Virus record (IMG/VR): IMGVR_UViG_3300048930_000871
Reading direction: 5' to 3' (one strand)
From: an uncultured virus (IMG/VR IMGVR_UViG_3300048930_000871)
Taxonomy: Duplodnaviria > Heunggongvirae > Uroviricota > Caudoviricetes
Length of the DNA stretch: 20,000 nt
A model generated the notes under the pieces. That model did not search any database and was not told the origin of the DNA. It saw only the letters and a list, made by a program, of their open reading frames with translations. This document shows, in pieces, positions 2,427-20,000 of the stretch (position 1 is its first letter; every line of letters starts with the position of its first letter). Position numbers and translations under genes: made by a program.

Positions 2427-2438
2427 GACGGGGACTCC

Positions 2439-3083: not shown

Positions 3084-3086
3084 GAA

Positions 3087-3802: not shown

Positions 3803-4470
3803 GTCCCCACCAGAACGAACCTGGACCGCAGAGGATCCAGAACGCCCTTGTAGGGGGAGAGAGCATCGACGGACAAACCCCCCGCGCCGGAAGTGCGGAT
3901 GGTCTGCAGATTGCCGGGCACGGCATACTCGACCCGAAGAGTGCCGATTGTGACAGCCTTTTCGGGAGGAACTCCGGAGGCATTTCCGCCAAAGTCCTCG
4001 TACCCGAGAGCGATCATCTGCTGCTTGATCAACTCCATGACGACCATGCGAAGACTGGCCGGCAGGGTTTCGTAGCCGGCGGAGTATAGGACCTCTGTCT
4101 CGGGGCCGGCCGGAATGAGGACTCGCGAAGTGGCTTTGTTGAGAATGATCGTGTCGTTGATCGATGTGATCTCGTCCAGCGGTGTTTCGCGAAGGAACCG
4201 ATCACCATTGCGATCTTCGATATCGCGCCACACTTCCCTGAATTCCATGTAGCTTAGATACCGTCCGGTGTAATCCCGAATCAGCTGGCTGACGGCTTCG
4301 ATGGAACCGATCAGCTGGATGTCCATCGGAGATTCCAGCGGATAGGTGATGCCGAACCAGTCTTTCGTCTCCTGCTCGGTGACCAGGCCCGGGATAGGAT
4401 CGGTCACCACGGAGAAGTCAGAGAACCGGCTGCTGGTGATTCGTCCGGGCTCGTATAGATTCTGGCTCAT
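3799..4470 (-). CDS. Head-tail adaptor (gp6-like with inserted domain)
   Basis: [10 protein letters not shown]...[20 protein letters not shown]...[10 protein letters not shown]...[20 protein letters not shown] pattern. Confidence 0.8.
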
Positions 4471-6047
4471 TCTTCGCCCTCCACCTTCATGGGCACCGCG
4501 ATGACTTCACCACCATCCATAGTCATGACTACGCCCGAACCTTCCCACAGGACGTTCTGAATTCCCCGACCGCGGGGACCTTCCGGACCCCTCGGGCCTT
4601 CTGGACCCGGCGGGCCAGCTTCTCCGCGCATGCCGCTCTTTCCACGCTGCGAAACCAGCCTCCACTCTGCGCCGGGGGGCTGGGTATCGGTGACGGCGAG
4701 TGCTCGCCATGTTGCCCCGTTGACCGCGACTTCTTGGTTCGGCTGGTAGAATACGCCTTCGGTCCATGGGCCAACGTGTTCGACCGGAGATAGCGAAAGA
4801 TCGAATTGCTGACGAGTCCCATCAGAAAGGATGTAGGCCAGAGTGGCCTTCTGTCCATCGGGCGCGTATTCGAGGTCCACCTTCTGCACCCCGTTGACGA
4901 CGAGGAACCAGTTTGCGTCTTTGTCCGGGGAAGACAACGTCGCGTTTCGCGCATACCACAGACCTCCTCTCCAAACCCCCCAGGTATCCGCAGGGGCACC
5001 CTGCCCATCTGCGAGTATCGTGGGTGGCGGGATTTGCCCCGCAGGACCCGCTGGACCCTGGGCGCCCGGCATGCCCTGCACACCCGGCTCGCCAGCGGCG
5101 CCACGTTCTCCGGCTTCGCCTCCCGGACCCGGAGGGCCAGGAGGTCCCTCTTTTCCCGGGGGGCCGGGGGGTCCAGGAGGGCCCGCCTCGCCTGCTTCGC
5201 CGTCTCGCAGGGAGCTGATGCGTTCTTCGGCCTTCGCCAGCATTTCGGCGTTCTGGGCCTGAAGACGTTCGATTACCTGAGTGGCCTGTTCACGAATTTC
5301 CAGGACTTCGCGTTCAGTTTTCTGGACTGCCAGCCCCGCTGTCGTATGGACATGGGTGGTCAGCTCGGAAAGATCCACTGCGGCCAGGGTGCTTTCCACA
5401 AATTCCAGTCGACCACCCAAATTGTCGATGGTCTTCGTGGCTTCTGCCAGGACATCAGTGAGATCTGAGCTGTCCACCTTCAGGATGAGTTCCTGCACGG
5501 AAGTCTCAGCCTTCTTCTCCAGCGTCTCGAGTCGCTCAGACAGGAGAATGCGGAACTGCTGCTCGTCTGTGAATCCCGTATCGACTCGTGACGACAGTGA
5601 CCAGAAATTGTCCCCCCGCTTGGGCAGGTAGTCAATTGAAGAAAGCACCAGCGACTGAACTCCGCTCAGCGTCACGGATGAATCGCTGAGATTCGCGGTA
5701 AACATTTCCAGATCACGAAGCTTCGAACTGAGCGACTCGACTTCAGCCTGGGTGCGGGACAACTCCGTCCGGGTGTTGTCCAAAACTCTTGCTGCGATGC
5801 GCTCGATGTCATCCAGGGTGTGGACACTGGCGGCCGCCGCCTTGTCACTCAACTGCTCCCGTAGTTTTCCAGCCTCCGACTTCAGGGCGGCCACCTCCAT
5901 CGTGAGGATGTTGTTCGCGGACACGGCGGCCAGAGCTTCTTCCTTAGCCGCAGCGGCCACCTTCTTCAGCTCTTCGATCTGTGGCTTGATAACCGCCTTG
6001 ATCGCGAGCGTGACATCAACGATGATCTGCTTCGTGTTCACGCCCAT
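4467..6047 (-). CDS. Portal-adjacent virion protein: coiled coil, collagen (Gly-X-Y) segments and Trp-rich repeat modules
   Basis: About 280 aa helical N-terminus, about 19 GXY triplets, two modules (WRGGLWYA...W and [16 protein letters not shown]...W), then a second GXY run. Confidence 0.75.
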
Positions 6048-7399
6048 ACCTCCGCGACCAGGTTTTCCAATTCCTCGGCCGACATATTTTCGCCCTCCTG
6101 CTCCTCTTCCTTCTTGTTATCCGGAGGGGGTGTCTGCTTTGCACCGCCCGGCGGGTTAGCCGCAGGGGCGGATGGAGCAGTCTCCGGAGGCTTGGAAGCG
6201 AACGAAAGGGGAACGACCTGCGCCTGGACGCGAGGTTCATCGCCGAATTTCACGGAAGGCAGCCCTTCCCGGGCACGGCCTTCATTGGGGGAGAACAATC
6301 CCCCCTGGATGCCCTTGACTATTCCCTCGATGCGAGCAGCGAAGTCGGCCCGCAGAAGATAGTCGGCATCGAATGCAATCCACTCACCTTCAGGCAGCTG
6401 GAACAGGAAATCCAGTGCGAGTTCGATGTGTTCGAGAACATAGCCCAGTCCCGTGGCGAGCCAGTTCTTCATCAGCACTTCGGTGTTGTTGTAGGTCTGG
6501 CCGCCAATTTCTCCGATGATAGGCAGCGGCGTACGGAAGACGCGCGCAATGTCTGCGACGCTCATCTTGTACGATTCCACGACCGCGGCATCCACCGCAT
6601 TCATGGACAACGCCTGCCATTCAACCCCGTTCTGCAGAACTGCTGCCCTACCAGAGTTCACGCCCTGATAGGCACTCTGCCATTCGGTGCGCAGCACTTC
6701 AACCATTTCTGGCTTCAGTGTGCCCGGAGTCTTCAGGTAGCCGCTCGGCCGGGCCATGTTCTTGTGGAACGCGGCCATCGCCTCCTGGATCGCATTTCCA
6801 CTGTCGATCGCATAGGCGGCTGCCAACATCGGCGATTCTCCGACGAGTGGCGATACCGGCGTGTGCATGCGGATATGGAGAACATCGCGAGCGGGGTAGA
6901 AATCCCCCACCACAGGATCTGCACCGGGAGCAATGGGGTCCTGCGGGAAAGTGTAGTAGACGCTGCCATCTTCTGGATTGATGTACGGCGTCGTATTGTT
7001 CGGCCGCATCAAATGCAGGCCGCTGATCTCGTTTCGATTGTTGCGCTCAGCCAGTGCGTACCCGTTGCCGGTGACGAGTTCGGCCCGCACAAGATTAAGG
7101 AAGAAATCTGCCTTGGTCTGGTAACCGTTGGGGCGGCGAAGAACTCTGGAAGCAGCTGAGTTCTTAACTCGGTCGCTCCCACCTCTGTCGTTTTCCCTCC
7201 AGTGACCGATAGGAAGCATCGCTACCGTCTGCGTTATCGCCCCGATGCAGGCCTCTACGACGGCGTTTCGCCCGGTGGCCGGGATACGAAATCCCTGCTG
7301 CCACCACGTGATCGGCCAGAAAGAGGGGGGCTTCCGGGTATCATCCCCCCGCCAGTAGCGGCCGATGACGGATTGTGCGAACGACTGGATAGCGCCCAC
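6038..7399 (-). CDS. Portal protein, HK97 family
   Basis: [52 protein letters not shown] motifs; GTG start with GAGGAG RBS. Confidence 0.97.
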
Positions 7400-7603: not shown

Positions 7604-8185
7604 TCAGCCCTCCCCACCGCTGATCGTATCTTCCACCTCGTGTAGGGTGAAAGACGATTCGTTGCTGTTCGCCCCATGGATGGTCTGCACACGAACCATC
7701 ACGTCCATGGGGCCCTCGAACGACAGATTGTCGAACTGCGCACTCAGGGACGATGACGAGACGAAGGTCACAGCATCCGCCTCGACATCGTCGAGGAAGA
7801 CCATGTCGCTGTCCGCAAAGTCAGTGCCCGAAATGACCAGGGCAACACTGGCGGACGTGTAGGCGGCCGATGTCGGTGACATTCCGGTGATGGCCGGTGT
7901 GCGAAGATCGGGCGGATCCGGCGGGGATTCGGGGAACAGATGCTCGATCGGCGAAGATGGGATCAAGGTTCCCCCCTGGACCGCTTCGGCCAGCCCGTCA
8001 TCGGTCAGGTTGTTCGCGAGCAGCATGCCCGCATACGGGCCAGACGTCCGCACTCCCAGAAACGAGGTCTCGTCGATTTGCCCGCCGATGGCCGCGGACG
8101 TTGCCGGAGGCGGTGCTCCGGAAACCGTATCCTCATGCGCCACCGGAACCTCGCCGGGCGGATTCGGATCGTAGATATCGGACAT
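7604..8185 (-). CDS. Putative capsid decoration protein with IPT/TIG-type Ig-like domain (paralog 2)
   Basis: PAITGMSPTSA...LVISGTDF...VTFVSSSSLSA...SNESSFT is IPT/TIG-like; GGGAGG RBS. Confidence 0.75.
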   Translation of the reverse strand: MSDIYDPNPPGEVPVAHEDTVSGAPPPATSAAIGGQIDETSFLGVRTSGPYAGMLLANNLTDDGLAEAVQGGTLIPSSPIEHLFPESPPDPPDLRTPAITGMSPTSAAYTSASVALVISGTDFADSDMVFLDDVEADAVTFVSSSSLSAQFDNLSFEGPMDVMVRVQTIHGANSNESSFTLHEVEDTISGGEG

Positions 8186-8197
8186 AAAAGTCCTCCC

Positions 8198-8638
8198 TCA
8201 GGTGATGGTGAAGGTGGCGTAGTTCGTGATGACCTGTCCGGCCACCACGACGACCAGCTGGACAGCCCCGGCCGACGATGGAGTGAGAACGGCCCTCAGT
8301 TCCGTCGGGCTGACGTAGGTCGTTGGAAGAGCGACGCTGCCCCCAGAAACCATGAACACCACGCTTGAGGGGCTGAACGAGGTGCCCGTGACGGTGATCT
8401 CGATCGGTGTGTCTGAGTGCGCGATGGTGTTCGGGGTCAGCGTGGGCGATGCCATGAGCGCCCAACGATTACGCGGAAGCTGGATCTCGCCCGCCAGCAC
8501 AGCATTCGTGAGATCAGTGCCGCTGTTGAACGCCAAGAGAAGTCCCCGAAAAGGCCCCTTCAGGCCGTACCCGAACGCGACGCTGGGGACTACTTGACCG
8601 CCTATCTGAGCTGGAGTCAGGGGAACCGGGTCTGCCAT
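8198..8638 (-). CDS. Putative capsid decoration protein with IPT/TIG-type Ig-like domain (paralog 1)
   Basis: LTPNTI...ITVTGTSFSPSSVV...LPTTYVSPTELRAVL is IPT/TIG-like; follows the capsid gene; GGAG RBS. Confidence 0.75.
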   Translation of the reverse strand: MADPVPLTPAQIGGQVVPSVAFGYGLKGPFRGLLLAFNSGTDLTNAVLAGEIQLPRNRWALMASPTLTPNTIAHSDTPIEITVTGTSFSPSSVVFMVSGGSVALPTTYVSPTELRAVLTPSSAGAVQLVVVVAGQVITNYATFTIT

Positions 8639-8721: not shown

Positions 8722-10569
8722 TCACCAGGCGACGCCGGTCTTGTACTGGATCGCACCCGCGCGGCGGGAGGCCCAGGAGATATCCCAGATCAGGCGCAGC
8801 GCGAGGCTGTCCGTCTGGAACAGCGACCGAGTGGGGGTCGCAAGCACGCCCGAACCCTGCGCGCCGGTGGCGATCGGCAGCGGGGCCGAGTCCTCCATGT
8901 GGAGGGTGGCCTGGTTGCTCATGTCGAGCGCCGGCGAATCACCGTAGCCCTGCACGAATTCCGCCTGGTCGATCAGGAACACGATGGCGGAGGGCACGTT
9001 GATCGACGTGATGATCGGATAGCCGAACAGCCGGCCCTGGGAGACTTCGTCCGCGAACGGGCGGGAATCCTCGGTGGAGGACAGCGCGGTCAGCAGGCCG
9101 ATACGCCGGCTTTCGTTCATGATCCACACCGGGCGCCGACCGGCACCGGCATCGATCATGCTCTGCACCATCGCGCGAAGATCCGCGACGATGTTGGCGA
9201 CGGTATTGCCGGCGGAGGCGGAGCCGGTTCCCATCACCTGGAGGCCGGCCGGGCGGATTGCCGAAGCCGCTGAGTTGTCCATCAGAGCCGCATCGATGTT
9301 GACCGCGGTATCCTCGATCATCATCTGGCGGAACAGCGGTTCGGCCGCCGGGGACGAGCGCTGCGCGAGTTCGCGGGTCATCGTCGTGATGACGCCGAGC
9401 TTGAACGGCGTGATGAGGACGCTGGTCAGCGCCGCCTGCTTGACCGGGATCGGAGCGCCTTCACCGACGAACGAACCCCCCAGGCTGCGGGCGGTACGGC
9501 CCGGCAGACGAACGGCGCCCGTGCGATCGAACGTGAGGCGCAGGCCGTTGAGAGCCGCCCACACGGATTCCGGCGACAGAAGGTCGAGGAACTCGCCGAT
9601 CTGCGTCTCGATCAATTCCGCGGCCCAGCCGGCGACGTTGGTCATCGCGGGGTTGGTCGCTGCGAGGGTCATCACCTCGACTTCCTTGTCGCCGCCGAAG
9701 TCGTTCAGGATGATGTCCTGCAGCGATCGGTTGGTGACATGGGACTTGGCGACGATGAAGGCGGAACGGAACAGGAGTTCGGCCTTCTGCCGCTCCTTCT
9801 TCGGCTGGGCGTGGGTGCGGCCACCGCCATTCGCCGGCTTGGAGCCGAGAGCGAGGGCGGCTTCGGCACGCTTCAGCGAAGCGAGGGTGGTCTCGGCAGA
9901 CTCCAGCTGGGCGGACAGCCCTTCCAGCGTGGCCGAATCACCTTCGTCCATGTCGTCCTTGGCGGCGAGATCGGCCACCTGATCCTTCAAATTGGTGACC
10001 TTTTCGGTCTGGGCACTGATGCGGTCGGCGAGGGTCGCCATTCCCGTATTCCTCTTGCTGGTGTGGGGACGAACGGCGGACTTGCCGGACTTGACTGGAG
10101 GCCGCGCCATGCTGTCTCGCATCTGCGCGTCCGCCAGGGTCTCCATCAATCGCAACGCCCCGGCATCGCCGGGTACCGTCACGAGACTGATTTCTCGAAG
10201 CTCCGCCTTGGTGACGGTCAGCTTGTCGGTCTTGGGATTATAGTCATGCTCGACCATCTTGAAGCCGACACTCGCGGCCTTCAAGATCTTCTGGTCGAGT
10301 AGACTCCACAGCGTATCGATGAAGGCGCTGGTCCCGCGAACGGCCAGCTTCAGCGTCGCCATGAGCTGGCCGCCTTCGACTCGGACATCTTCCCATAGAC
10401 CGATGGGGACGTCCGAATTGTGCATCCAGAGAGCGATGGGGTTCTTGCGGAAATCCGCAAGCTGCCACCCATCTTGGTTGATGGAAAACCCCTTCCGGTT
10501 CTGCCCCTCGCGGGACACCACGAACCGAAACGGATTGGCTGAGTCGGCGGTTGCGAGGAGCGTCTGCAT
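8722..10569 (-). CDS. Prohead protease-major capsid protein fusion (HK97 family)
   Basis: N-terminal protease (NPIALWMHN...PIG, LKAASVGF, ELREISLVTVPG), coiled-coil scaffold segment, then HK97-fold capsid (FVGEGAPIP, WIMN, RLFGYPIITS, SLFQTDSLALR). Confidence 0.96.
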   Translation of the reverse strand: MQTLLATADSANPFRFVVSREGQNRKGFSINQDGWQLADFRKNPIALWMHNSDVPIGLWEDVRVEGGQLMATLKLAVRGTSAFIDTLWSLLDQKILKAASVGFKMVEHDYNPKTDKLTVTKAELREISLVTVPGDAGALRLMETLADAQMRDSMARPPVKSGKSAVRPHTSKRNTGMATLADRISAQTEKVTNLKDQVADLAAKDDMDEGDSATLEGLSAQLESAETTLASLKRAEAALALGSKPANGGGRTHAQPKKERQKAELLFRSAFIVAKSHVTNRSLQDIILNDFGGDKEVEVMTLAATNPAMTNVAGWAAELIETQIGEFLDLLSPESVWAALNGLRLTFDRTGAVRLPGRTARSLGGSFVGEGAPIPVKQAALTSVLITPFKLGVITTMTRELAQRSSPAAEPLFRQMMIEDTAVNIDAALMDNSAASAIRPAGLQVMGTGSASAGNTVANIVADLRAMVQSMIDAGAGRRPVWIMNESRRIGLLTALSSTEDSRPFADEVSQGRLFGYPIITSINVPSAIVFLIDQAEFVQGYGDSPALDMSNQATLHMEDSAPLPIATGAQGSGVLATPTRSLFQTDSLALRLIWDISWASRRAGAIQYKTGVAW

Positions 10570-10612: not shown

Positions 10613-12343
10613 CTAAATAATCGCAATAGGCGAAATATTCCCCGTGTCTGCAAAGGGGAGTTCCTTGGCTCGGATAGCCATCGCCATGGCGACAAAGCCA
10701 TCGATCCTGGCCGTGCGACTGGACTTGTCGAACTTGCGATTTCCCGCAGGATCCTGAAGAGCCCGAACGTTCATCGCGTTCCACTTCAGAACCGGATGGT
10801 TGTCGTGGATGATAGTAGCGTTGAGAAGTGCCGTCTCTGTCGCTTCTACCATCAGCGAACCATCTTTGTATCCCTGACCGATGGGTGTCAAGGGAACTTC
10901 AACGCCGTATTCGTCGAACCACGTCTTCAGCACATCGACGCGCCAGCGGTCAAACCCGATGACACGGATGTTATACAGAGCCGATAGTTCGGCAATTCTC
11001 TGCGTGACAAATCGGAAATCTACCGACTTGCCAGGGATGGCTTCCAAGTACCCCCCGGCAGCCCAGGCTTCGTACGGAACCTTATCCTTCTTGCTGCGTT
11101 CGCTGAGTGTGTCTTCTGGAGTCCAGAAGAAAGGCAGCACGACTTGAGGATCGTCGAACACCAGCACCAGGGAGGACAAGTCCACCTTCGAGGACAAGTC
11201 GAGGCCGGCCGTGCAGGATTGACCCTCAAGCTGATCATAGTCCACGGGTTGGTAGCACCGCGCCCAGGTGACTTCGTCGACCAAGGTTGCTTGCTGCGAT
11301 ACTCGCTGATTAAGGTATAAATTCCTAAAAGAATTCATCATCGTCGGCAGCATTCTCGCCCGACCGGCGTACTGCCTCATCTCGTCCAGGCTTCGAAAAT
11401 CTCCCAGCGCGGGATTGGCTAGGTGCCACTTGGACTCGTCGAACGGGTCCTCGTTCATGGGGAGAGCGTACTTGGTCAGGTGAAAGGTTGGGTCGTCGAC
11501 CTCGCCTTTCTGTATCTGCTCTCCGTAGTCAATGAGTTCGCTGAGAACTGCCGAATCCTCGGGCGCCTGCGTGCTGATGACGAGAGACAGCGGTTCCTTC
11601 TGCGCGCCCATGGACGTCGTCATAACGTCGAACAGCATACGGTCATGGCTGAACTGCGCGAATTCATCGAACAGCACGAAATTTGGGTTAAGACCGTGCT
11701 TGGAGCGGGATTCGGAGGACAGTGCGCGAAAGACACTGTTCGAGACCTGGCAAGTCGCCCGTTTGTTGGATTCGGTGAGAATAATGCGACTAGCTAGATC
11801 TTCATCCTGAAGCACCATGGACTGCAGGACACGGAACGCCAGCGCCGCCTGACCGACCTCGAAGGCTACGCTGAATAGCTGCCCGTTCCATATCGCACAG
11901 GGTCCCGTCAGGTGACCGAGGATCAACCCCCCGGCCAGCGAGGTCTTGCCATTCTTGCGTGCCATGGTCCACACGGCTTGCCTGATAGCCCGAACGATCT
12001 CACCCTTGTCGTTCTTCCTCGTCGGAGCGTAGACCTGCCTGATCATTCGCTTCTGCCAATCGCGGAGTTCAATCAGCTTTCCGACATCTGGGCCATCAGG
12101 AACCTTCAGCGTGTGGATGAAGGCGATCATCTTCTCCTCGATCGGCATCGTTGGCTCGACGCGAGGCTTCTTGGGCGAGGCCGGGATGCTGGTGATAGAG
12201 CCGGCTGCCTTCCTGGTTGTGCTGACCGCAGCCGTCGCCAGCCCGAGCACTGCTCCGAGACCATCCACATTGGACTTGCTCGGAGAACGCTTGGGCGGCA
12301 GGAAGTCTAGATTGGGCTTCTTCGTTCTCTTGATGACTTGCAT
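10613..12343 (-). CDS. terL: Terminase large subunit (HK97-like)
   Basis: LRDWQK Q-motif, Walker A MARKNGKT, Walker B VLFDE, ISTQ, ANPALG, GLDLS and RIDGFVA nuclease motifs. Confidence 0.97.
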   Translation of the reverse strand: MQVIKRTKKPNLDFLPPKRSPSKSNVDGLGAVLGLATAAVSTTRKAAGSITSIPASPKKPRVEPTMPIEEKMIAFIHTLKVPDGPDVGKLIELRDWQKRMIRQVYAPTRKNDKGEIVRAIRQAVWTMARKNGKTSLAGGLILGHLTGPCAIWNGQLFSVAFEVGQAALAFRVLQSMVLQDEDLASRIILTESNKRATCQVSNSVFRALSSESRSKHGLNPNFVLFDEFAQFSHDRMLFDVMTTSMGAQKEPLSLVISTQAPEDSAVLSELIDYGEQIQKGEVDDPTFHLTKYALPMNEDPFDESKWHLANPALGDFRSLDEMRQYAGRARMLPTMMNSFRNLYLNQRVSQQATLVDEVTWARCYQPVDYDQLEGQSCTAGLDLSSKVDLSSLVLVFDDPQVVLPFFWTPEDTLSERSKKDKVPYEAWAAGGYLEAIPGKSVDFRFVTQRIAELSALYNIRVIGFDRWRVDVLKTWFDEYGVEVPLTPIGQGYKDGSLMVEATETALLNATIIHDNHPVLKWNAMNVRALQDPAGNRKFDKSSRTARIDGFVAMAMAIRAKELPFADTGNISPIAII

Positions 12344-12344
12344 G

Positions 12345-12833
12345 TCAGCCGTGTCCGACGTAAGTCAGGCCAGTCCTCATATCCCTCGACGATTCTCCAA
12401 CCTCATCTTGACGCTTGGCTTGGTTGGCGACACGAACCTCCGCACGAGCACGAAGTACCATCTGGATGATGTGGCTGGTGCCGAGGGATAGCTGGTTCTC
12501 ATATCTCGTGACAATGCGAGACATGCGATCCCAGTTCATCATGGCCCGAGTATCGTCGGGATCCTTTTCGAAGATGTCGCTGAATCGCATCATGTGCTCC
12601 ACGGCCCGGACATACTGAATCATCATCGGTATGTGTCGGGCGCGGAAGAACTCCAGCGGGACATCGCTCAGCGCGGCGATCCACAGATTCCGCTGCATGT
12701 CCGTCAGGAATTCCGGCGGGGGAAATCTTTCCAGGGCAGCGGTCATCAGCGCCGTATTGCCGAACGATGACTGGCGGAGCATCGTACCCTGACGAGGAGA
12801 CGCTCTGCCGTTCTGGCTACTCCGACTTACCAT
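12345..12833 (-). CDS. terS: Terminase small subunit (putative)
   Basis: PPPEFLTDMQRNLW motif and helical body; lies between HNH and TerL; AGGAG RBS. Confidence 0.8.
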   Translation of the reverse strand: MVSRSSQNGRASPRQGTMLRQSSFGNTALMTAALERFPPPEFLTDMQRNLWIAALSDVPLEFFRARHIPMMIQYVRAVEHMMRFSDIFEKDPDDTRAMMNWDRMSRIVTRYENQLSLGTSHIIQMVLRARAEVRVANQAKRQDEVGESSRDMRTGLTYVGHG

Positions 12834-13200
12834 GATATCTCCTGTTCAGGAATTGCGAGCGGGCAGATTTTCCCATCTGCCTAGCCTGCAACACCACTGT
12901 CTTTCCGTTGAGGCTGCCATCCAGCGATACGTCCGGGCGAGTATCCACTTCGCCGTGTTTTTCACGCCCGGACTTCGCATCGTGACAATCCTTACATAGC
13001 GATTGAAGATTGTCATCTCCGAGACTCCCCCCACGGGCTCTCGGAATAATGTGGTCGACTGTAGTCGCTGGAGTGGTGTAACCTAGCTGAGCGCACGTGC
13101 GACAGTTTGGTTCTTTCAATAACCACTCTCTTCGCCTTCGTACCCACCCAGGATCTGCTTTCAGCAAGTGTGGGATCTTGCGGTTGTAGGTTGACATCAT
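12817..13200 (-). CDS. Terminase-associated HNH endonuclease (HK97 gp74-like)
   Basis: EPNCRTC...ATTVDHIIP...GG...NLQSLCKDCHDAKS. Confidence 0.95.
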   Translation of the reverse strand: MMSTYNRKIPHLLKADPGWVRRRREWLLKEPNCRTCAQLGYTTPATTVDHIIPRARGGSLGDDNLQSLCKDCHDAKSGREKHGEVDTRPDVSLDGSLNGKTVVLQARQMGKSARSQFLNRRYHGKSE

Positions 13201-13594: not shown

Positions 13595-13599
13595 GTGAT

Positions 13600-13631
13600 A
13601 TCATTGCATCGGGGTGGCTGACTAGGCAAGG
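13600..13631 (-). promoter_or_regulatory. Putative promoter at the head of the late operon
   Basis: TTGCCT-18 bp-(TGc)AATGAT, 5 nt before the ATG; shares CCTTGCnnAGTC with the capsid promoter. Confidence 0.5.
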
Positions 13632-13662
13632 AGCCAAGTTCTGCCCCTGTAGACCTGTTGCA

Positions 13663-13749
13663 GGCGCATGGGTGCTATGCAAGTGCGGCATTGGTCGCTA
13701 GCCCTGTCTTAAGGCTACCCTGCACCGTGGCAATAGGGCCATGAAGGAG
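13663..13749 (+). promoter_or_regulatory. Conserved promoter/leader element, copy 1
   Basis: GCAT-N7-ATGC box, gcTACCCT, then TGGCAATAGGGCCATGAAGGAG. Confidence 0.7.
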
Positions 13750-13757
13750 TTTAGGTG

Positions 13758-14042
13758 ATGCCCAGCAATCGTAAACTAGGTCGTTCCAACGTACAGGTGA
13801 TGTTCCGCATCACCCGAGGCCAGCTTGCCGAACTCTACTGCAAGGGCTACTCGGCCGATCAAATGATGACGCATACCCACCACGTTCTGGATGGGTTCGG
13901 AATCCCCCCGGGCAGCAACACCCGCAGCCGACTCTGCGTCGCGTTATGGAATATCAGCCACCGGCCGGGAGTTCCTTCCATCTGCGACATGCTGGCCGAA
14001 AAGGAACAGTTTGACGTGGAGGGCAAGTTCGATGTCTGCTGA
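13758..14042 (+). CDS. Hypothetical phage protein
   Basis: AAGGAG RBS, ATG at 13758; first gene of cassette 1. Confidence 0.75.
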   Translation: MPSNRKLGRSNVQVMFRITRGQLAELYCKGYSADQMMTHTHHVLDGFGIPPGSNTRSRLCVALWNISHRPGVPSICDMLAEKEQFDVEGKFDVC

Positions 14043-14319
14043 AGTCCTGAAGGCTATCATCGAACTGTTTGAAACGGACAGCGGTTCCCCGTTTCAGCAA
14101 GCAGACATTGAAGAAGCTGATTTCTTGTGGGATCAGCTCAGCAAAGAAGGAAAGGATTTTCTTATCAACCTGTCCCGTGAAGATTTGACGAACGTGGTCA
14201 TTGGTGAAGTTCGCCAGCAAGGGAACATCGAGGTCTGCCTATTCAATGGTGGATGGAAAGAGGTCCCAGCTGAAGTCAGTGGCTTTCTGAATTATGTCTT
14301 CGAAGGAGCTCCGCGATGA
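14032..14319 (+). CDS. Hypothetical acidic protein
   Basis: Start revised to ATG 14032 (MSAEVLKAII), GGAGGG RBS; ATGA-coupled to the next gene. Confidence 0.75.
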   Translation: MSAEVLKAIIELFETDSGSPFQQADIEEADFLWDQLSKEGKDFLINLSREDLTNVVIGEVRQQGNIEVCLFNGGWKEVPAEVSGFLNYVFEGAPR

Positions 14320-14597
14320 GCAAGTTTCTTATGAATCGAGAACATCGCCGGCGCAAGCGGGCGGCGTTCAATCAGGCCGTTCGCCACTACAAGGATCTAA
14401 AGCTAGCAATCTCGAACATGCAGCGTCTGGCCGCTGAATTCGAGGTGGAATACCGAAAGGTGCCTCTTCGCTCCCACGCGAAAAAGGCCGGGGCCATACG
14501 CGATTCTCTTGGTGTTCTACACGAATCCATGTCGGACAGCGAGATGAACGTGGAGAGTATCTTCCACGAGTTCAACATCCTTCCGGAGGAAGTGTGA
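14316..14597 (+). CDS. Hypothetical helical protein
   Basis: AAGGAG RBS; ATGA coupling. Confidence 0.75.
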   Translation: MSKFLMNREHRRRKRAAFNQAVRHYKDLKLAISNMQRLAAEFEVEYRKVPLRSHAKKAGAIRDSLGVLHESMSDSEMNVESIFHEFNILPEEV

Positions 14598-15082
14598 TGT
14601 CTAATTATCTGGACATGTTGTTCTTCTCGGCCATGCTTCTGCTGATATGCGTATTCGGTGGATGCGCCAGCACGCAACCGGCGGATTACGAAATCGCATG
14701 TCGGGCCGAGCAACCGGCTCGAGAAATCGAACGGGCTGCACGCATTCGTCGAGATGCTGCCTCCATCCGAAGAAATATCGCTATCCGGGAACAGCACCCG
14801 CTTCCGGATTCCAGTCAGGAACTGGCCTATAGCCGAAATCTTCTGCGCCTCCTGGAAAATCCAACGGAGGAAGAAACGGCTCAGCGCCTTGCTGACCAGC
14901 AAGATCTCTGTGTCCATCTTCGAGTGGCGGGGGCTGAACGCAGAAATGACAGGGCTTTGCTCGCTGGACTAGCCGTGGGCCTGGGTGCGGCCAGCGACGC
15001 CCTGTGGATCAACAATATCCAGACGGCACCTCTGCAGACAATTGCCCCCCTGCGGCGTGATAGTTTGCTGGACGCCCGGTGA
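14597..15082 (+). CDS. Putative lipoprotein
   Basis: Hydrophobic N-terminus ending VFGG-C-AST (lipobox-like) and a second hydrophobic Gly/Ala segment; GGAGG RBS. Confidence 0.6.
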   Translation: MSNYLDMLFFSAMLLLICVFGGCASTQPADYEIACRAEQPAREIERAARIRRDAASIRRNIAIREQHPLPDSSQELAYSRNLLRLLENPTEEETAQRLADQQDLCVHLRVAGAERRNDRALLAGLAVGLGAASDALWINNIQTAPLQTIAPLRRDSLLDAR

Positions 15083-15092
15083 CTGTGCGGCC

Positions 15093-15187
15093 GGCGCATA
15101 GGCCCATGCAGTGAGCGCATGCCCGACATGTTGCTCTTGCATAACTCCTATGCCACACTGCCATGTGGCAATGGGGCTACGAAGGAG
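15093..15187 (+). promoter_or_regulatory. Conserved promoter/leader element, copy 2
   Basis: Three GCAT..ATGC-type boxes; TTGCTC-17-CACACT with extended -10 TG; TGGCAATGGGGCTACGAAGGAG. Confidence 0.7.
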
Positions 15188-15194
15188 CTAATTC

Positions 15195-15419
15195 GTGTCT
15201 AAGCGCAATAACTCCATGTTCAAGAGACTTCCGGATCGTTGGTTCGTGGATTTCAACGCCTGGAAGATGGAAGTGTCCAACATCATCCGCCGTCGCACAG
15301 GTTTGTCAGCGGATGATTTTCCAGACTGGAACTATCGCGAAGCATTCGACAATCGTGTCAAGCCCCCGCAGGCGGCCACCCGCGCTATCAACACCTTCAA
15401 GAAGGACATGGGTATATGA
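15195..15419 (+). CDS. Small hypothetical phage protein
   Basis: GTG start after AAGGAG; 74 aa; ATGA-coupled downstream. Confidence 0.75.
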   Translation: MSKRNNSMFKRLPDRWFVDFNAWKMEVSNIIRRRTGLSADDFPDWNYREAFDNRVKPPQAATRAINTFKKDMGI

Positions 15420-16042
15420 GCGACCAGACCGAAGAGAATGTTGTCACCCTCGCGCTTGCCATCGGCAAAGTCTGGAATGGACACAGCGACGAAGAGGTGG
15501 GGCCGGACGTTATTCAACTCTGGCAATACATTCTTCGCTGTCTACCTTCCAGGGACTTCGAGTTCCTTTGGGGTCTAAACAGGGAAAAAGGTGGCGCTCT
15601 CGACACTCTTATCATGGAATCTGTTACCGATGACATGATAGAAGATTCACCTGAACGCTCAGTTATGATAGCGATCGAGCACTACTTCGGTCTATATGAG
15701 GAATGGACTTCCGATAAAAACGATTTCCTGACACAGCTCGTGGAGGCGTGCGGGTATAGACATCCCCTCGGTGGCTACGAGGAATGGGTGTGGATGTTCT
15801 GCCACCTGCCAATTCGTGAAGATGATCTGGTTCTTCTGCAGGGCTTGTCCCCGGAACAGCTAGAAGTCATCATGCCGGGATCGTCCTACGGCAGCATCGA
15901 AAACGATCCGGACCTGGCAAAGCTTCTCGATCGGGCTCCCAAGGAAACCTGGGTGGAGTTGGACAAACGTCTGAATCACACCTACGCCCTATTCGAGGAG
16001 TTCGTGGCTGACCACCCGGAAAACTGGCGCGACCTTCCCTGA
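15416..16042 (+). CDS. Hypothetical highly acidic protein
   Basis: 208 aa, strongly Asp/Glu-rich; AAGGA RBS. Confidence 0.8.
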   Translation: MSDQTEENVVTLALAIGKVWNGHSDEEVGPDVIQLWQYILRCLPSRDFEFLWGLNREKGGALDTLIMESVTDDMIEDSPERSVMIAIEHYFGLYEEWTSDKNDFLTQLVEACGYRHPLGGYEEWVWMFCHLPIREDDLVLLQGLSPEQLEVIMPGSSYGSIENDPDLAKLLDRAPKETWVELDKRLNHTYALFEEFVADHPENWRDLP

Positions 16043-16053
16043 GGCGTGCGGCG

Positions 16054-16150
16054 GGCGCAAGGCGGGCATGCGGGTCTTGCATGGCTCCTAGGCTGGTCTT
16101 GCGCCCACTCTACATGGCACAATGCCCCTGGCAATAGGGCCAAGAAAGGG
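16054..16150 (+). promoter_or_regulatory. Conserved promoter/leader element, copy 3
   Basis: Two degenerate GCAT-N7-ATGC boxes, TGgCACAAT, TGGCAATAGGGCCAAGAAAGGG. Confidence 0.7.
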
Positions 16151-16159
16151 ATCATCACC

Positions 16160-16711
16160 GTGCGAAATCCTGTCACCGTTGCGGGCCACCGCAATCGTCT
16201 CCGGCAACACCTTCGCGAACACCCTGTCGCGCAGCGCATTCTTCTTCGAATCCTCAACACTGCTCCTGAATCGCATCTGGTTTCCTATCTGGAGGGTGCC
16301 CGCTGCTATTCTTTCGAAATGCCGGTGTCTGGCATCGAGCAGATGTTATCGTCCGCAATCGCCGTGGTCTCTTCTCCCAACGGGGCCAGCGAATTGCTGT
16401 CGATTGTCGTTCCTCGCACAGCGAAAATGCCGAAGGGAGCGCACGCATCCCTCTACGTGCAAGAGATCAAGCGCCTCATCACCGCTTCTCCCAAGGTACA
16501 GGAGCAGATGAGTCAATTGCTCACCTTCGAAATCATTCCCCCCACCGGTGAACTCGCTGTGTCGCGGTGGGTGCATTGTCGTCAGATATGGTTGGACAGC
16601 GAGCATCCCGATAAGGATGCGGTGGCTGACTGCCTGCAACTCGCCATTGACCTGGTCGGTGTCTTTGATATGGACCCGTCCGATGTTCGTATCAAGATCC
16701 TGGGGGAGTAA
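16160..16711 (+). CDS. Hypothetical protein
   Basis: Start revised to GTG 16160 (MRNPVTVAG), downstream of the conserved leader and AAGGGA RBS. Confidence 0.7.
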   Translation: MRNPVTVAGHRNRLRQHLREHPVAQRILLRILNTAPESHLVSYLEGARCYSFEMPVSGIEQMLSSAIAVVSSPNGASELLSIVVPRTAKMPKGAHASLYVQEIKRLITASPKVQEQMSQLLTFEIIPPTGELAVSRWVHCRQIWLDSEHPDKDAVADCLQLAIDLVGVFDMDPSDVRIKILGE

Positions 16712-16716
16712 AGAAC

Positions 16717-17121
16717 ATGGAAATCCGTAAGCACGCTACGAATGAAGAAGCCCTGGTCGCATGTCATCAAGTCCGGGAGCAACTGATATCATCCGGAATC
16801 AAGCATGCCAATCGCCTGCGTGAACTCCGCACCGCCAACCTGAACTACGATATTGCGGTGATGAAGGGCGGCGGGATGGGCCTGATTTTCATCAAGGGAG
16901 GATCCAGTCTTCACGGTCAATACAAGTTCGGCCCGCTATGGTCATCCAATATTCATCGCTGTGGGCCGGATCTGGTGAGAAGGTGGAATGGGCACGCCGG
17001 CGAAAATCATGAAGTGGGGCTAGTCAAAATCCAAGAAGCCCTGGCGCAGGAGTGCGTGAAAATACTTACGCTGATGGCTGATCTCGAGAAATCTCGCGAG
17101 CGTCTGGAGTCAAGACAGTGA
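16717..17121 (+). CDS. Hypothetical protein
   Basis: GGGGAG RBS; 134 aa; in operon. Confidence 0.75.
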   Translation: MEIRKHATNEEALVACHQVREQLISSGIKHANRLRELRTANLNYDIAVMKGGGMGLIFIKGGSSLHGQYKFGPLWSSNIHRCGPDLVRRWNGHAGENHEVGLVKIQEALAQECVKILTLMADLEKSRERLESRQ

Positions 17122-17525
17122 ATCGATCCTCTGCCATTGGCACGAAATTGGCTCAGTTTTCTGTCGGCGATTTCAACCGAGCTCACATCCGGGTGGGCGT
17201 GCTTGAGATCTATGTTCGCCGAGGCCCGCTATTCCATGATAGGAAGTGGTATAGCGGGTTCACTCTGGCAAGCGTCAGCCTCCACCTTCCTCTCGTGGAT
17301 GGGCAGCCTCCTGAAAAGACTGGTCTGCTGCGGCCTGTCTTCGATTGGATGGAACGAAGCAGCTACCAGATGATAAAGGTCGAGAACGTGATATCCCCCC
17401 GGATGCTGGATATCGTTCTCCGTAACGGGTGGATGGAACTACCCGCGATGGGTGAACTTTCGGACGTCCGATCCTACGCCAAGGTGCGGCCCGGTGCCCA
17501 GGGTGGCACCGAGCGACCAATTTAG
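17118..17525 (+). CDS. Putative GNAT-fold (acetyltransferase-like) protein
   Basis: TLASVSL...EKTGLLRPVFDWME...IKVENVISPRMLDIVLRNGW resembles GNAT motifs A and B, with a degenerate CoA loop. Confidence 0.5.
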   Translation: MNRSSAIGTKLAQFSVGDFNRAHIRVGVLEIYVRRGPLFHDRKWYSGFTLASVSLHLPLVDGQPPEKTGLLRPVFDWMERSSYQMIKVENVISPRMLDIVLRNGWMELPAMGELSDVRSYAKVRPGAQGGTERPI

Positions 17526-17539
17526 GGCCTATTTAGAGC

Positions 17540-18478
17540 CTAGGGGGAGCCCTTTGGGCTTGCGGGCGCCACTGCCCTACCGCCAATGCGCCCAGGGGCT
17601 CTGGCGGCCCCTCCCAGCCCCGGCATTTGCACTGTTGTCAGCATGTGCTGGTAGGCTCCACCATAGAAATCGCATTTGGCGCACAGTGGAACGATAGTGC
17701 GGTCTCTGTTCTGCAGGGCCGCACGAATTTCATGCAGCCGCATGTCGTTCCATATATCCACGATGCTGCGATCAGCCACATTTCCGAATGTCTCTTCTCC
17801 ATGATAGTCATTGCAGCACAGGATCGCTTCTCCCTTCCAGTTGATGTTGAGCACACGCCAGGGGCGAACGCACGTCTTCTTCAGCGGTTCGGTCAGCGCG
17901 GCCGCAGACCATTCGATGTTTCCGCTGCGGTTGGTCTTCTTGTGTCCTCCCTCGAAATACTTCCCGTACTTGCGGTTGATTTCCACGACTCCCTTCTTCA
18001 AGTAGGCGGAGCCAGACCCTTCCTCCGCGAACATTGACGAGAGTCTCTCATAACGCTTGTCGGCTAGAGCAATTCCCCTTGCCGTGTTGTCCTTGGCAGC
18101 ATAGATGTTGATGACAATACTGTCGAGTCCGGCAGCGAAGAGATCAAGCACATCCTCCCTCCGCCGGATATAGTCACCGTTCGTGTTCGTCATGAGGTTC
18201 GCACGCGGGCAGGCTTTCCTCATCAGACGCAGAAAGTCCGGCAGGCGGGTATCCCTCATCGGTTCGTTGTAGATATAGGGAGAGATGCGGCCCGAATACT
18301 TGAGGCGGCCGAGTTCTTCCGCTATCTTCTCGACAACCCCCCACGGCATCTCGTCGTCGGGCCTGTCCGTTCCATTGTTGGGGCAGAAGAAACAGGTGCG
18401 ATTGCATTTCGCCGCGGTCTCGATGCAGATAGAATTGAAGAGCTTGATCTGGTCTTGTCCGGCGATGATCGTACGCAT
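17540..18478 (-). CDS. Radical SAM enzyme with SPASM/twitch domain
   Basis: CNRTCFFC (CxxxCxxC), NEP, TNGD, CVRPW...GEAILCC...FGNV...IWN...CAKC; AGGAGG RBS. Confidence 0.93.
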   Translation of the reverse strand: MRTIIAGQDQIKLFNSICIETAAKCNRTCFFCPNNGTDRPDDEMPWGVVEKIAEELGRLKYSGRISPYIYNEPMRDTRLPDFLRLMRKACPRANLMTNTNGDYIRRREDVLDLFAAGLDSIVINIYAAKDNTARGIALADKRYERLSSMFAEEGSGSAYLKKGVVEINRKYGKYFEGGHKKTNRSGNIEWSAAALTEPLKKTCVRPWRVLNINWKGEAILCCNDYHGEETFGNVADRSIVDIWNDMRLHEIRAALQNRDRTIVPLCAKCDFYGGAYQHMLTTVQMPGLGGAARAPGRIGGRAVAPASPKGSP

Positions 18479-18501
18479 TGGGGACCTCCTATGGATAGAC
18501 C

Positions 18502-18530
18502 AGTATAGCAGGGGGTTGCTCCTCGGACTA
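18502..18530 (-). promoter_or_regulatory. Putative extended -10 promoter of the radical SAM gene
   Basis: TGcTATACT about 25 nt upstream of the ATG; weak -35 (TAGTCC) at 17 bp. Confidence 0.55.
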
Positions 18531-18743
18531 GCGGGGTTTGTGCCTGGATATCCTGGGACAGAATTCGTGATATTCTAGGTTGAGGCGCCCGGCGTAGGGA
18601 CCGGACCGGATCTGGCCGGCCAAGTCGGGATGGGGGCAAACCAAACTTTGCGTGCTGGGGGCCGTTCGGTTTCAGCCTCTCGTCGCGTTTTTTCGTCCTC
18701 CCCGCCCCTGATCGCGTCAGTTTCGTGTCATCTTCGAGTCTGC

Positions 18744-18967
18744 GCAACCTCGGGTTGCATTCTGCGTCGGCCGGCACGTTCTGGTTGCACACGTCCTGGT
18801 TGTATTCCCCGACATGCACGCTCTGGTTGCACACACGTTCTGGTTGTGGTCTGTGTCCCAGCACACCCTCTGGTTGTGCTCTCTCGGGTTGCAGGGTCGG
18901 GGGTATCTGCAAGTTCTAGTTGCACACGTTCTGGTGGTAAATCCTGCACCCTGCACGCTCCGGTTGC
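18744..18967. repeat. Array of ten degenerate 15-bp repeats (RCACGYTCTGGTTGY), mostly in tandem pairs
   Basis: Units start at 18744, 18774, 18789, 18816, 18833, 18863, 18878, 18909, 18924 and 18953. Confidence 0.9.
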
Positions 18968-19056
18968 GCAAATGGGCCAGACTATTTCGCTTCTGTAATA
19001 GCCGGCGCTGCTAGAAAGACCCCTGCCATGGGCTTATCCCGCCGTAATCTTTACGG

Positions 19057-19073
19057 CTGGCACGAGTCTTGCT
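19057..19073 (+). promoter_or_regulatory. Sigma-54 (-24/-12) promoter consensus
   Basis: CTGGCACGAGTCTTGCT matches YTGGCACGrNNNTTGCW exactly; intergenic. Confidence 0.65.
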
Positions 19074-19232
19074 TACGCGCAGGCGGGTTGCTGCCCTGCC
19101 CTATGGGGAAGCCATGCGGCACTTGCATGGCAGCCATGCAGAAAAATGGGGTGCTAATGCGCGCAGTCCCCGGGCTACAAAATGGCCACCGGCGGCGCAG
19201 TGCTTCCGGGTTCAACCAAGGGTTTTCATACC

Positions 19233-19640
19233 ATGGCCACCATCCCCGCCACCGTTTCCTCCACCTCCACCAAGGCGCCCAAGGCTGCCACCAAGGTTGC
19301 CACCGCCAAGGCGCCCAAGGTTGCCACCGCCAAGGCGCCCAAGGTTGCCACCGCCAAGGCGCCCAAGGCTGCCGCTGGCACCGCCACGCCGCCGGCCGGG
19401 GGTTACCTGGTCCTGGTGTCCACCTGCCCGGCCCGGCCCGACAGCAACCGCGCCATGCGCTGGCCTTTGCTGGTGCAGCACGCCGGCAAGCCCAACGGGA
19501 TCGCCGCGCTGCACAAGGCGCTAAAGGCCGCCAACGAATGGGCCAGCGCCAAGGGCATGTTGGGCTGGTGCGCCGGCAAGGGCTACGTGGTGGCCGATGG
19601 CATTGCGGGCAAGGCGCCCAAGGCCGCGCCCAAGGCGTAA
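19233..19640 (+). CDS. Basic Ala/Lys/Pro-rich histone-H1-like protein
   Basis: ATG 19233 preferred (AAGGG upstream); (ATAKAPKV)n encoded by a 24-bp tandem repeat, a small globular domain, a KAPKAAPKA tail, then a terminator. Confidence 0.75.
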   Translation: MATIPATVSSTSTKAPKAATKVATAKAPKVATAKAPKVATAKAPKAAAGTATPPAGGYLVLVSTCPARPDSNRAMRWPLLVQHAGKPNGIAALHKALKAANEWASAKGMLGWCAGKGYVVADGIAGKAPKAAPKA

Positions 19641-19665
19641 CCCGCCCGCCAGAAAATCGCCTTAA

Positions 19666-19701
19666 CGGCGCCCGTGCAGCAATGCGCGGGCGCTGATTTT
19701 T
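19666..19701 (+). terminator. Intrinsic terminator
   Basis: CGGCGCCCGTGCA-GCAA-TGCGCGGGCGCTG followed by ATTTTT. Confidence 0.75.
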
Positions 19702-19862
19702 GCGTTGCGATTGTTACGCTGCCGGTATTTATGCCTTAGCATGCCAGGCGCCATTTTAAGCGTTCTGGGAGCCCTTTAGGCGCCTGCCCGCACCTGCCCT
19801 AGCACCCCTGCCACAAAAACCCGCTGTAGCCCGCTCCAGGGCGGCGCATGCGCAAGCCTAGG

Positions 19863-20000
19863 CTGGCCGGTGGCGCCGTGGTCGCCCTGGCCGGTGGCGC
19901 CGTGGTCGCCCTGGCCGGTGGCGCCGTGGTCGCCCTGGCCGGTGGCGCCGTGGTCGCCCTGGCCGGTGGCGCCGTGGTCGCCCTGGCCGGTGGCGCCGTG
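19863..20000. repeat. Perfect 24-bp tandem repeat CTGGCCGGTGGCGCCGTGGTCGCC (at least 5.75 copies, truncated)
   Basis: Directly visible; runs off the window edge. Confidence 0.97.

Follow-up and report, generated by a model that had tools for sequence, protein, structure and literature searches.

The question raised by the last kilobase of the 20,000-nt stretch of uncultured Caudoviricetes DNA analysed here (IMG/VR record IMGVR_UViG_3300048930_000871; the window) is why a single base step, read as GA on one strand and as TC on the other, is so scarce within it. In the preliminary description of the window, this island (19021–20000) was attributed to a context-specific DNA modification, the virion DNA being modified at GA/TC and the sites that host proteins must read on entering DNA having been purged of the dinucleotide. 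The depletion was found to withstand all the controls applied, to lie just inside a probable cohesive-end (cos) site and to be paralleled at a genome end of the siphovirus iggy, and local selection on the DNA itself is tentatively preferred as its cause.

The depletion was evaluated as the ratio of the observed GA+TC count to the base-composition expectation (o/e) in 600-nt sliding intervals. The ratio was 0.30–0.35 across 19001–20000, whereas the 356 intervals in the rest of the window averaged 1.28 (standard deviation 0.121, minimum 0.93), which places the island about 8 standard deviations under the mean of the others. Within 19021–20000, 33 GA+TC were observed against 105.6 expected, with GA (11 vs. 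48.3, o/e 0.23) more depleted than TC (22 vs. 57.3, o/e 0.38), and the over-represented dinucleotides were AA, TT, TG and GC, with values of 2.06, 1.51, 1.46 and 1.38, respectively. The two hand counts of the preliminary description, 15 GA+TC in 19261–19860 (64.5 expected, o/e 0.23) and 11 in a sample of the capsid gene (9301–9360), proved exact. On the plus strand, GA is rare from about 18740 onward and TC only from about 19000, the later onset for TC being due to the iteron-like repeats, which carry this dinucleotide.

The preliminary description had called for sliding ratios, collapsed repeats and codon-shuffled controls, and the depletion persisted in all of them. Collapsing the coding repeat and the terminal array left 818 nt, which held 29 GA+TC, compared with 91.2 ± 7.3 in mononucleotide shuffles (z −8.5; none of 5000 shuffles as low). 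Coding and non-coding DNA were affected alike, as had been claimed: the non-coding flanks contained 10 GA+TC vs. 25.2 expected (19021–19232) and 7 vs. 26.2 (19641–19862), or 17 vs. 51 over their joint 434 nt. The open reading frame (ORF) between them, ORF135, was examined at its codon junctions by exchanging synonymous codons at random among the sites of each amino acid, a test in which the protein and its codon usage are fixed and the 10 within-codon GA/TC are invariant. A single junction GA/TC was found, against 9.9 ± 2.2 in the permutations (none of 5000 as low), 8.4 ± 2.1 with the repeats collapsed (P about 1e-4) and 5.6 in the C-terminal 89 non-repeat codons (P 0.0017). The third base ahead of A-starting codons is C in 30 cases, G in one and A in one; a T-ending codon stands ahead of none of the 22 C-starting codons, and the obligatorily G-ending codons (Lys AAG, Met and Trp) never precede an A-starting codon. 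The other 23 window genes tested presented the opposite trend, with junction z values of −0.2 to +4.1.

Several more specific origins were also tried. Repeated 6–8-mers in the non-coding flanks showed no excess over dinucleotide-preserving shuffles (z 0.4–1.0, equal to control regions), which ruled out hidden repeats. Depletion in the island is about the same for each of the four NTC trinucleotides, and TTC, accounting for 5 of the 17 non-array TC sites, is not singled out, so that avoidance of a TTC-type CRISPR protospacer adjacent motif (PAM) was rejected. Restriction-site avoidance concerns specific palindromic or asymmetric motifs of at least 4 nt; the depletion found here acts at the level of the dinucleotide, in all contexts. 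The depletion is not explained by composition, repeats, amino-acid usage, codon usage or hidden repeats.

Outside the island, low ratios were found in the early-region intergenic stretches 13595–13754 (0.57), 15083–15162 (0.42) and 17520–17660 (0.37; the 3′ end of the radical SAM gene and a short downstream spacer, with 6 GA+TC vs. 16.3 expected), compared with 0.91–1.69 in the intergenic stretches of the structural module. The claim that the promoter regions and 17520–17660 are similarly depleted is thus borne out in part; the three promoter-like stretches are paralogous and are not independent observations.

The position of the island, just inside a probable genome end, was judged from the ends of independently assembled contigs. 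PHROG and Pfam scans identified the window as siphoviral (Table 1). No cultured phage has a large terminase (TerL) more than 38% identical to that of the window, the closest being HK022 and the HK97-like cos phages, and the HK97-type TerL is accompanied, as in HK97-like cos siphoviruses, by an HNH endonuclease beside the small terminase (TerS). A second IMG/VR record (G001) was found to be the same phage, its positions 25779–31611 being 100% identical to window 1–5833; it adds 25.8 kb, beginning within a family-A DNA polymerase gene (PolA) and including an SNF2 helicase and tail genes. Since the longest contig carrying the window's own radical SAM protein cluster measures 66,389 nt, the genome is taken to be about 66 kb, of which 45.8 kb (about 69%) was examined and about 20.6 kb lies beyond window base 20000.

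Among the Logan contigs of a sediment metagenome (run X1) on 17000–20000, a 37,828-nt contig (depth 18.8) stops at 18661 and a 679-nt contig (depth 30.7) begins at 18642, while further contigs cover 19291–19344, 19339–19892 (depth 26) and the 24-nt unit of the terminal array (depth 140). No 31-mer bridging the 18642–18661 junction is present in this run; a 20-nt overlap lacking such 31-mers is what filled-in cohesive ends would be expected to leave. The contigs of two IMG/VR relatives (G003 and G004) stop at the nucleotide homologous to 18661, so that three independent assemblies agree. The window and a further relative (G002) read through the junction, as circularised or concatemeric DNA would. 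The segment 18642–18661 is probably a cos site with ends of about 20 nt, lying 5.8 kb from the TerS gene and not adjacent to it. An assembly chimera was ruled out, because G002, from another assembly, spans the same junction and because the promoter-type element of the island recurs in it.

The island belongs to a cassette just inside this end (Table 1). The conserved 75-nt element that straddles the end is the sole part of 18500–20000 that has a homologue in a relative; the promoter motif also recurs in G002. Iteron-like repeats similar to those of the window follow at the same place in G002, succeeded by a (CAGGGC)n array in which its contig ends; the repeats are candidate terminase-binding (cosB-like) or origin/enhancer sites. 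The GCATG/TGCA-rich motif of the promoter-like region also occurs in 13630–13760 and 15075–15200, which lead into the two blocks of plus-strand genes, and in G002, where a 36-nt match (3634–3669, 83% identity) was obtained; no match to the sigma-70 consensus was found in 19090–19232. A spacer of about 150 nt separates the terminator from the 24-nt array, whose copy number is put at about 5–7 from the Logan depth of 140 for the unit vs. 26 for its flank. Translated in frame, the array would yield a repeated membrane-like AGGAVVAL segment after MRKPRL, and its unit matches iggy 650–687 (79% identity over 38 nt, within a 44-aa hydrophobic ORF near the left end of iggy), a weak resemblance of low complexity. 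No known RNA was matched in 17400–20000 with Rfam at E up to 0.1. The island itself gave no match by megablast against a phage collection or in two metagenome scans, only G002 or chance matches in exact-pattern scans of viral contigs, and no relatives in family-based scans of viral and genome contigs; these blanks carry little weight, as records close to the window may be missing from the collections searched.

A parallel is provided by Pseudomonas phage iggy. The preliminary description noted that some siphoviruses install 7-deazaguanine bases in GA contexts, and iggy supplies this precedent: according to the published report on it, the iggy DpdA follows a strict GA motif, about 97% of GA sites carry dPreQ0, and the genome bears 1,091-bp direct terminal repeats (PMC10484667). 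Term searches of the main text of that report, and of passages of the one on phage CAjan (PMC7544227), found nothing on a terminal region that is depleted or non-coding. In the iggy record (MN029011.1), the genome-wide GA+TC o/e is 0.79, the lowest 500-nt intervals (0.16–0.20) are those of the last 700 nt, and the first 600 nt give about 0.5. The terminal non-coding segment 59949–60628 (680 nt) contains 10 GA+TC vs. 62 expected (0.16), whereas the ratio is 0.68 for the 32 intergenic stretches of the interior taken together and 0.80 in coding sequence. The iggy island is thus not accounted for by a mutational equilibrium across the whole genome.

The rarity of such islands was evaluated in 21 phage genomes (this phage, four relatives, six DpdA phages and ten non-DpdA phages), the threshold being a 500-nt interval below 0.35 of the genome's own GA/TC baseline. 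Only this phage (0.19) and iggy (0.21) contained such intervals. The lowest values in the other DpdA phages were 0.42 (Seurat), 0.60 (NP1), 0.64 (MMDA13), 0.83 (RHEph06) and 0.69 (Rosebush), and those in the non-DpdA phages were 0.74 (T7), 0.71 (phiKMV), 0.89 (YuA), 0.80 (DMS3), 0.39 (phage 73), 0.85 (vB_SBP33), 0.70 (HK97), 0.60 (N4), 0.57 (Xp10) and 0.67 (T1). The relatives ranged from 0.60 to 0.97, with the minimum at the G002 end beside the cos site. The other dinucleotides that passed the threshold were mostly TA or CG, of which few are expected, the exceptions being AA/TT in phiKMV and in the relative G005, and AT in iggy. The low intervals of NP1 and phage 73 lie in stretches with a GC content of about 0.7. 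Those of Seurat (35699–36580, minus strand) and of a second iggy locus (42647–43528, minus strand) encode the Q/A/P-rich C-terminal tails of single-strand-binding (SSB)-like proteins, GC-rich and GA/TC-poor with values of 0.31–0.46; amino-acid composition alone can thus give about 0.3–0.46, which is a caution for any composition scan. The junction effect in these tails was small or nil (z +0.6 in Seurat and −2.3 in iggy), compared with −4.07 in ORF135.

These observations suggest that the stretch would be the first, variable cassette just inside the probable cos end of a cos-type siphovirus of about 66 kb, running from the end through the conserved element, the iteron-like repeats, the promoter-like region, a linker-histone-like gene and the terminator to the 24-nt array, and that the GA:TC step would be kept at about 0.3 of expectation throughout it, in non-coding DNA and at synonymous junctions. 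Selection is read as acting on double-stranded DNA, GA on one strand being TC on the other; the duplex, rather than RNA or protein, appears to be the target, since the step is scarce in both of its strand versions, whether the DNA is coding or not. Such selection would oppose a GA-context-specific transaction on the end-proximal kilobase, which might be either a base mark to be kept off the end DNA or an attack that is denied a target. Local DNA-level selection against the GA:TC step in an end-proximal early cassette is the explanation to which most weight is given, if tentatively; we infer both that selection rather than history maintains the signature and that the responsible agent is GA-specific.

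A number of results weigh against this explanation. The parallel with iggy is a parallel with one characterised phage. Among the relatives, G002 breaks off about 340 nt past the end, in a stretch that is only mildly low (GA 5 vs. 20.6 expected, TC 12 vs. 17.0), and G003 and G004 stop at the end itself. The cassette has a mosaic look, and the signature may therefore be inherited and not maintained. Genes for a base modification were searched by tblastn with six phage DpdA proteins and the iggy FolE, QueC, QueD and QueE (E < 0.01) against the window, G001–G006 and five fragments, amounting to 45.8 kb of this phage and 190 kb of relatives, with iggy as the positive control. No match to DpdA was obtained in these targets, with all six queries matching iggy, and none to FolE, QueC, QueD or QueE, with the control again matched; the sole match outside the control was noise (E 0.062). 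The statement that no dpdA or que gene is visible in the window was accordingly upheld, and the wider search recommended in the preliminary description found nothing in the further 25.8 kb of G001 or in the relatives. A Pfam search with the TGT family PF01702 recovered none of five DpdA-annotated phages (Seurat, NP1, MMDA13, RHEph06 and Rosebush) and is unfit to exclude a phage DpdA; its blank result over five relatives was discarded for this failed control, and tblastn was used instead. No methyltransferase or other modification family was found among the scanned ORFs of the window and G001.

The backbone of the genome adds a further objection. Summed over the genes outside the island, junction GA/TC is enriched in this phage (observed/permuted 1.21, z +13.6), as it is in the relatives G002 (1.18) and G005 (1.31), while it is depleted in iggy (0.68, z −21), Seurat (0.90), Rosebush (0.81) and Xp10 (0.83). 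The genome-wide trace seen in iggy, if it is what GA-directed modification leaves behind, is absent from the present phage. The use of genome-wide synonymous GA/TC avoidance as a marker of modification is a proposal of this analysis based on few phages, and it is not general, because the DpdA phages NP1 (1.06), MMDA13 (1.00) and RHEph06 (1.11) are neutral to enriched.

The alternative to local selection that is given most weight, though itself somewhat unlikely, is that the cassette was recently recombined in at the genome end from another lineage, for example a GA-avoiding or GA-modifying phage, and that its signature has no present purpose. The GC content of third codon positions (GC3) is 0.90 in ORF135 vs. 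0.70 in both the TerL and the radical SAM genes, the island has a GC content of 0.61–0.83 vs. 0.59 for the window, the G002 sequence differs after the iteron-like repeats, and ORF135 is known only by a near-identical copy and distant family members. Read depth in X1 is 26–31 on the island contigs vs. 18.8 on the 37.8-kb backbone contig, a difference that GC bias or a mixture of strains could also produce. In three runs of wastewater (X2–X4), which belong to a different study, 17000–18646 is present with 0–1 differences and nothing is found past about 18650, which at depths of 2–6 is a hint of mosaicism only. This account shifts the question to the donor and leaves it unanswered there. The ORF135 junction ratio of about 0.1 is also far below the genome-wide 0.68 of iggy, so that a local island just as extreme would have to be assumed in the donor.

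The model of the preliminary description, in which genome-wide 7-deazaguanine replaces the G of GA and the step is purged where host proteins read the entering DNA, is supported in part and, as a whole, considered unlikely. It is favoured by iggy, which combines a strict GA motif (PMC10484667) with the same terminal island, and by the partial depletion of the early-promoter-like stretches. Both phages also have convergent arms, and the iggy dpdA/que genes lie just upstream of the DNA polymerase gene; since G001 starts in PolA, the equivalent stretch here falls within the 20.6 kb outside the examined DNA. The negative tblastn searches, the validity of which was confirmed by the positive control, the GA/TC-rich backbone, whose synonymous enrichment is opposite to that of iggy, Seurat and Rosebush, and the failure of host-read sites to explain purged synonymous positions in coding DNA all argue against it. 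The neighbouring radical SAM enzyme carries a SPASM domain, which QueE is not known to have, and its sub-threshold matches are to maturase and MoaA-type models. The model is possible only if the modification genes lie in the remaining third of the genome.

A mutational footprint was considered very unlikely. In this account, C in TC would be deaminated in end-proximal DNA that repeatedly becomes single-stranded (TC>TT and GA>AA) by an APOBEC-like or DddA-like activity, and AA and TT, the expected products, are indeed the two most enriched dinucleotides of the island, which adjoins a DNA end; the rare A/T-ending codons of a gene with such a high GC3 (GTT, ATT, and CTA before AAG) would also fit. 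The GC content of the island, however, is above that of the genome and not below it, 17 Lys AAG codons supply much of the AA, the other intergenic DNA of the phage is unaffected, and there is no aligned relative with which to polarise substitutions. No TC-specific deaminase is known to us to target phages, no search aimed at one having been made. Equally improbable, and largely refuted as a sole cause, are ordinary constraints (a Lys/Ala/Pro-rich protein, promoter and terminator motifs free of GA/TC by chance, and the codon-pair preference of a highly expressed gene), for which the SSB-like tails, the scarcity of Asp and Glu in ORF135 and the paralogy of the promoter-like stretches speak, but which are contradicted by the junction test, the non-coding flanks, the Seurat tail with no junction effect and the absence of any other 600-nt interval of the phage under 0.93.

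Local selection against the GA:TC step can be taken one stage further. A GA:TC-free "clean strip" at the genome end might be a functional requirement of phages that carry a GA-context DNA mark, such that end-proximal terminase sites, the first promoters and the first gene stay unmarked; iggy would be the first example and this phage the second, with its marking enzyme encoded in the 20.6 kb beyond the window or being of a new kind. This extension is considered unlikely as it stands, but if true, terminal dinucleotide-free islands would predict the modification context of a phage from its sequence alone. Iggy is the one phage in which modification of G specifically in GA has been proven, and its sharing of the pattern provides a testable link between local composition and DNA hypermodification. 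If the link holds, a cheap sequence scan could flag modified phages and their target contexts in metagenomes, even where the modifying enzyme escapes searches by homology; without the link, the island would still be the mark of a fast-turnover end cassette with a linker-histone-like early gene, a candidate for anti-defence or nucleoid-directed functions.

The product of this gene was described as a 135-aa protein with only three Asp/Glu, and the composition is confirmed (2 Asp and 1 Glu, with 17 Lys, 36 Ala and 13 Pro). It consists of an N-terminal tail of AKAPKVAT repeats, a predicted winged-helix domain at about residues 51–122 and a short KAPKAAPKA tail, and its GC content per codon position is 0.61/0.63/0.90. 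No family was matched in Pfam, PHROG or NCBIfam, and a word-index search of 5.8 billion clusters returned a single copy, 99% identical. An exhaustive HMMER search with residues 48–135 yielded 10 proteins (E up to 0.001), of which three lay below 1e-10; in most of the eight family members examined (70–131 aa), the conserved domain is again preceded by an N-terminal tail rich in Lys/Ala/Pro/Thr. An AlphaFold2 (AF2) model built from a 9-sequence alignment reached a predicted local distance difference test (pLDDT) score of 84–92 over residues 51–122, with the fold strand, three helices, strand; the single-sequence model (pLDDT 48) was not used. Foldseek of the model against the PDB gave no match, and a representative-wide structural search gave weak matches (Z 3.6–5.4), nearly all to winged-helix domains, which included DNA-binding ones (Fur/Zur, PadR, MCM and ORC) and the peptide-binding RiPP recognition element (RRE) domains of pathways for ribosomally synthesised and post-translationally modified peptides (RiPPs); Z values so low point to a common arrangement only. 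Matches in the ESM Atlas (score 0.92) were viral clusters without names. The predicted architecture of a winged helix with Lys/Ala/Pro tails is linker-histone-like, and the protein may bind DNA.

An RRE-like role of ORF135 with the nearby radical SAM/SPASM enzyme may also be considered; against such a pairing, the two genes differ in strand and are placed one at each end of the linear genome, and the enzyme is missing from G002. In NCBIfam the enzyme gave only sub-threshold matches, to the maturase and MoaA-type models mentioned above, and its homologues (31–73% identity) occur on phage-sized contigs of about 48–70 kb. The top inverted repeat of the region is a 25-nt match, 84% complementary, between 17544–17568 and 19481–19505, that is, between the 3′ end of the radical SAM gene and the middle of ORF135.

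Table 1. Coordinates of the features of the window, in order of position
Feature	Position	Strand	Basis or remark
Tape measure	3–1238	-	PHROG
Major tail protein, head-tail connectors, collagen-like fibre protein	between tape measure and portal	-	PHROG and Pfam scans
Portal	6038–7399	-	PHROG
Two TIG-domain proteins (IPT/TIG domains)	7604–8185, 8198–8638	-	PHROG and Pfam scans
Apparent protease-capsid fusion, 615 aa	8722–10569	-	Matches prohead protease and major capsid families
Large terminase TerL	10613–12343	-	PHROG
Small terminase TerS and HNH endonuclease	HNH 12817–13200	-	PHROG
Eight ORFs without family match	13755–17525	+	PHROG and Pfam scans
Radical SAM/SPASM enzyme	17540–18478	-	Pfam PF04055, PF13186; neighbour of the island, outside it
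Conserved 75-nt element across the end	18634–18708	+	79% identical to G002 266–339
Probable cos end, 20-nt overlap of two ends	18642–18661		Logan contig ends, relatives' ends
About eight iteron-like repeats, GTYCTGGTTGCA(CAC)	18770–18970	+	Repeat families D4, D5
GA/TC-poor island	19021–20000		Counts in text; extends past window end
Promoter-like region and ORF135 5′ leader	19090–19232	+	GCATG/TGCA-rich motif, alignment A1
ORF135	19233–19640	+	135-aa basic protein
In-frame 24-nt tandem repeat inside ORF135	19291–19373	+	3.5 copies, 98% identity
Intrinsic terminator after ORF135	19666–19705	+	Strong; 13-bp stem, 10 G-C pairs, then ATTTTTGCGT
Perfect 24-nt tandem array	19863–20000	+	At least 5.8 copies, continues past window end; inside possible ORF from 19848 (MRKPRLAGGAVVAL...)

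Elsewhere in the window, the 615-aa protein looks like a fusion of prohead protease and major capsid protein, and the two small IPT/TIG proteins beside it are possible capsid decoration candidates. Immediately before the second block of plus-strand genes, at 15165–15187, lies a 23-nt motif (GTGGCAATGGGGCTACGAAGGAG-like) that contains the ribosome-binding site; it recurs at several sites in G004 and G006 with 96–100% identity and is probably a conserved leader or translation-start element. The contig of the relative G005 (57,115 nt, 93% complete) has ends that share about 35 nt with a single mismatch, and this overlap falls between the HNH and TerS genes. The genome is in effect complete, and its order is the classical HNH-cos-TerS, which is not that of the phage of the window. 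The island is absent from G005, but the difference in end architecture makes this relative uninformative for island conservation.

Among known systems, ORF135 resembles linker histone H1 and the bacterial H1-like Lys/Ala/Pro-repeat proteins such as AlgP and Hc1, in that its sequence and AF2 model combine a predicted winged-helix globular domain with flanking Lys/Ala/Pro-rich tails; it differs from them in matching no sequence family and in structural matches that, at Z 3.6–5.4, include peptide-binding RRE winged helices. In mammalian DNA viruses, APOBEC3 leaves footprints in the form of TC depletion, and TC is also the preferred context of the bacterial DddA. The island shares with such footprints the depletion of TC and GA and the excess of TT and AA; those of APOBEC3 are genome-wide, while the island is local and GC-rich, and we know of no APOBEC- or DddA-type enzyme acting on phage ends. 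Avoidance of restriction sites, PAMs or other motifs in phages concerns, in the known cases, motifs of 4–8 nt across the whole genome. The island is similar in that a short sequence occurs less often than composition predicts, presumably by selection at the DNA level, but what is excluded here is a single base step, from one kilobase at the genome end and down to synonymous sites. The iterated short motifs and arrays beside the genome end recall the end control regions of linear phages, such as lambda cosB, the terminal short-repeat arrays of T7 and the injection-stop region of T5. No dinucleotide-free zone has, to our knowledge, been described for these regions, no search aimed at one having been made; the end intervals are 0.93 and 1.02 in T7 and 1.08 and 1.20 in HK97.

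Iggy offers the only known parallel. The proteins of the two phages are unrelated except for tape-measure and tail-tip pieces, and iggy possesses dpdA, folE and queC/D/E, none of which was found in the examined 69% of this phage. The iggy genome is GA/TC-poor throughout (0.79 overall and 0.68 at junctions), whereas this phage is GA/TC-rich outside its island; the iggy island is non-coding with a GC content of about 50%, whereas the one described here includes coding DNA. Both are siphoviruses with convergent arms (iggy of roughly 60 kb) in which a terminal island of about 0.7–1 kb stands at the start of the early arm, with GA/TC at 0.16–0.3 of expectation and five-fold below the genome baseline, and both islands are enriched in AA/TT and GC and contain short iterated motifs and A-tracts.

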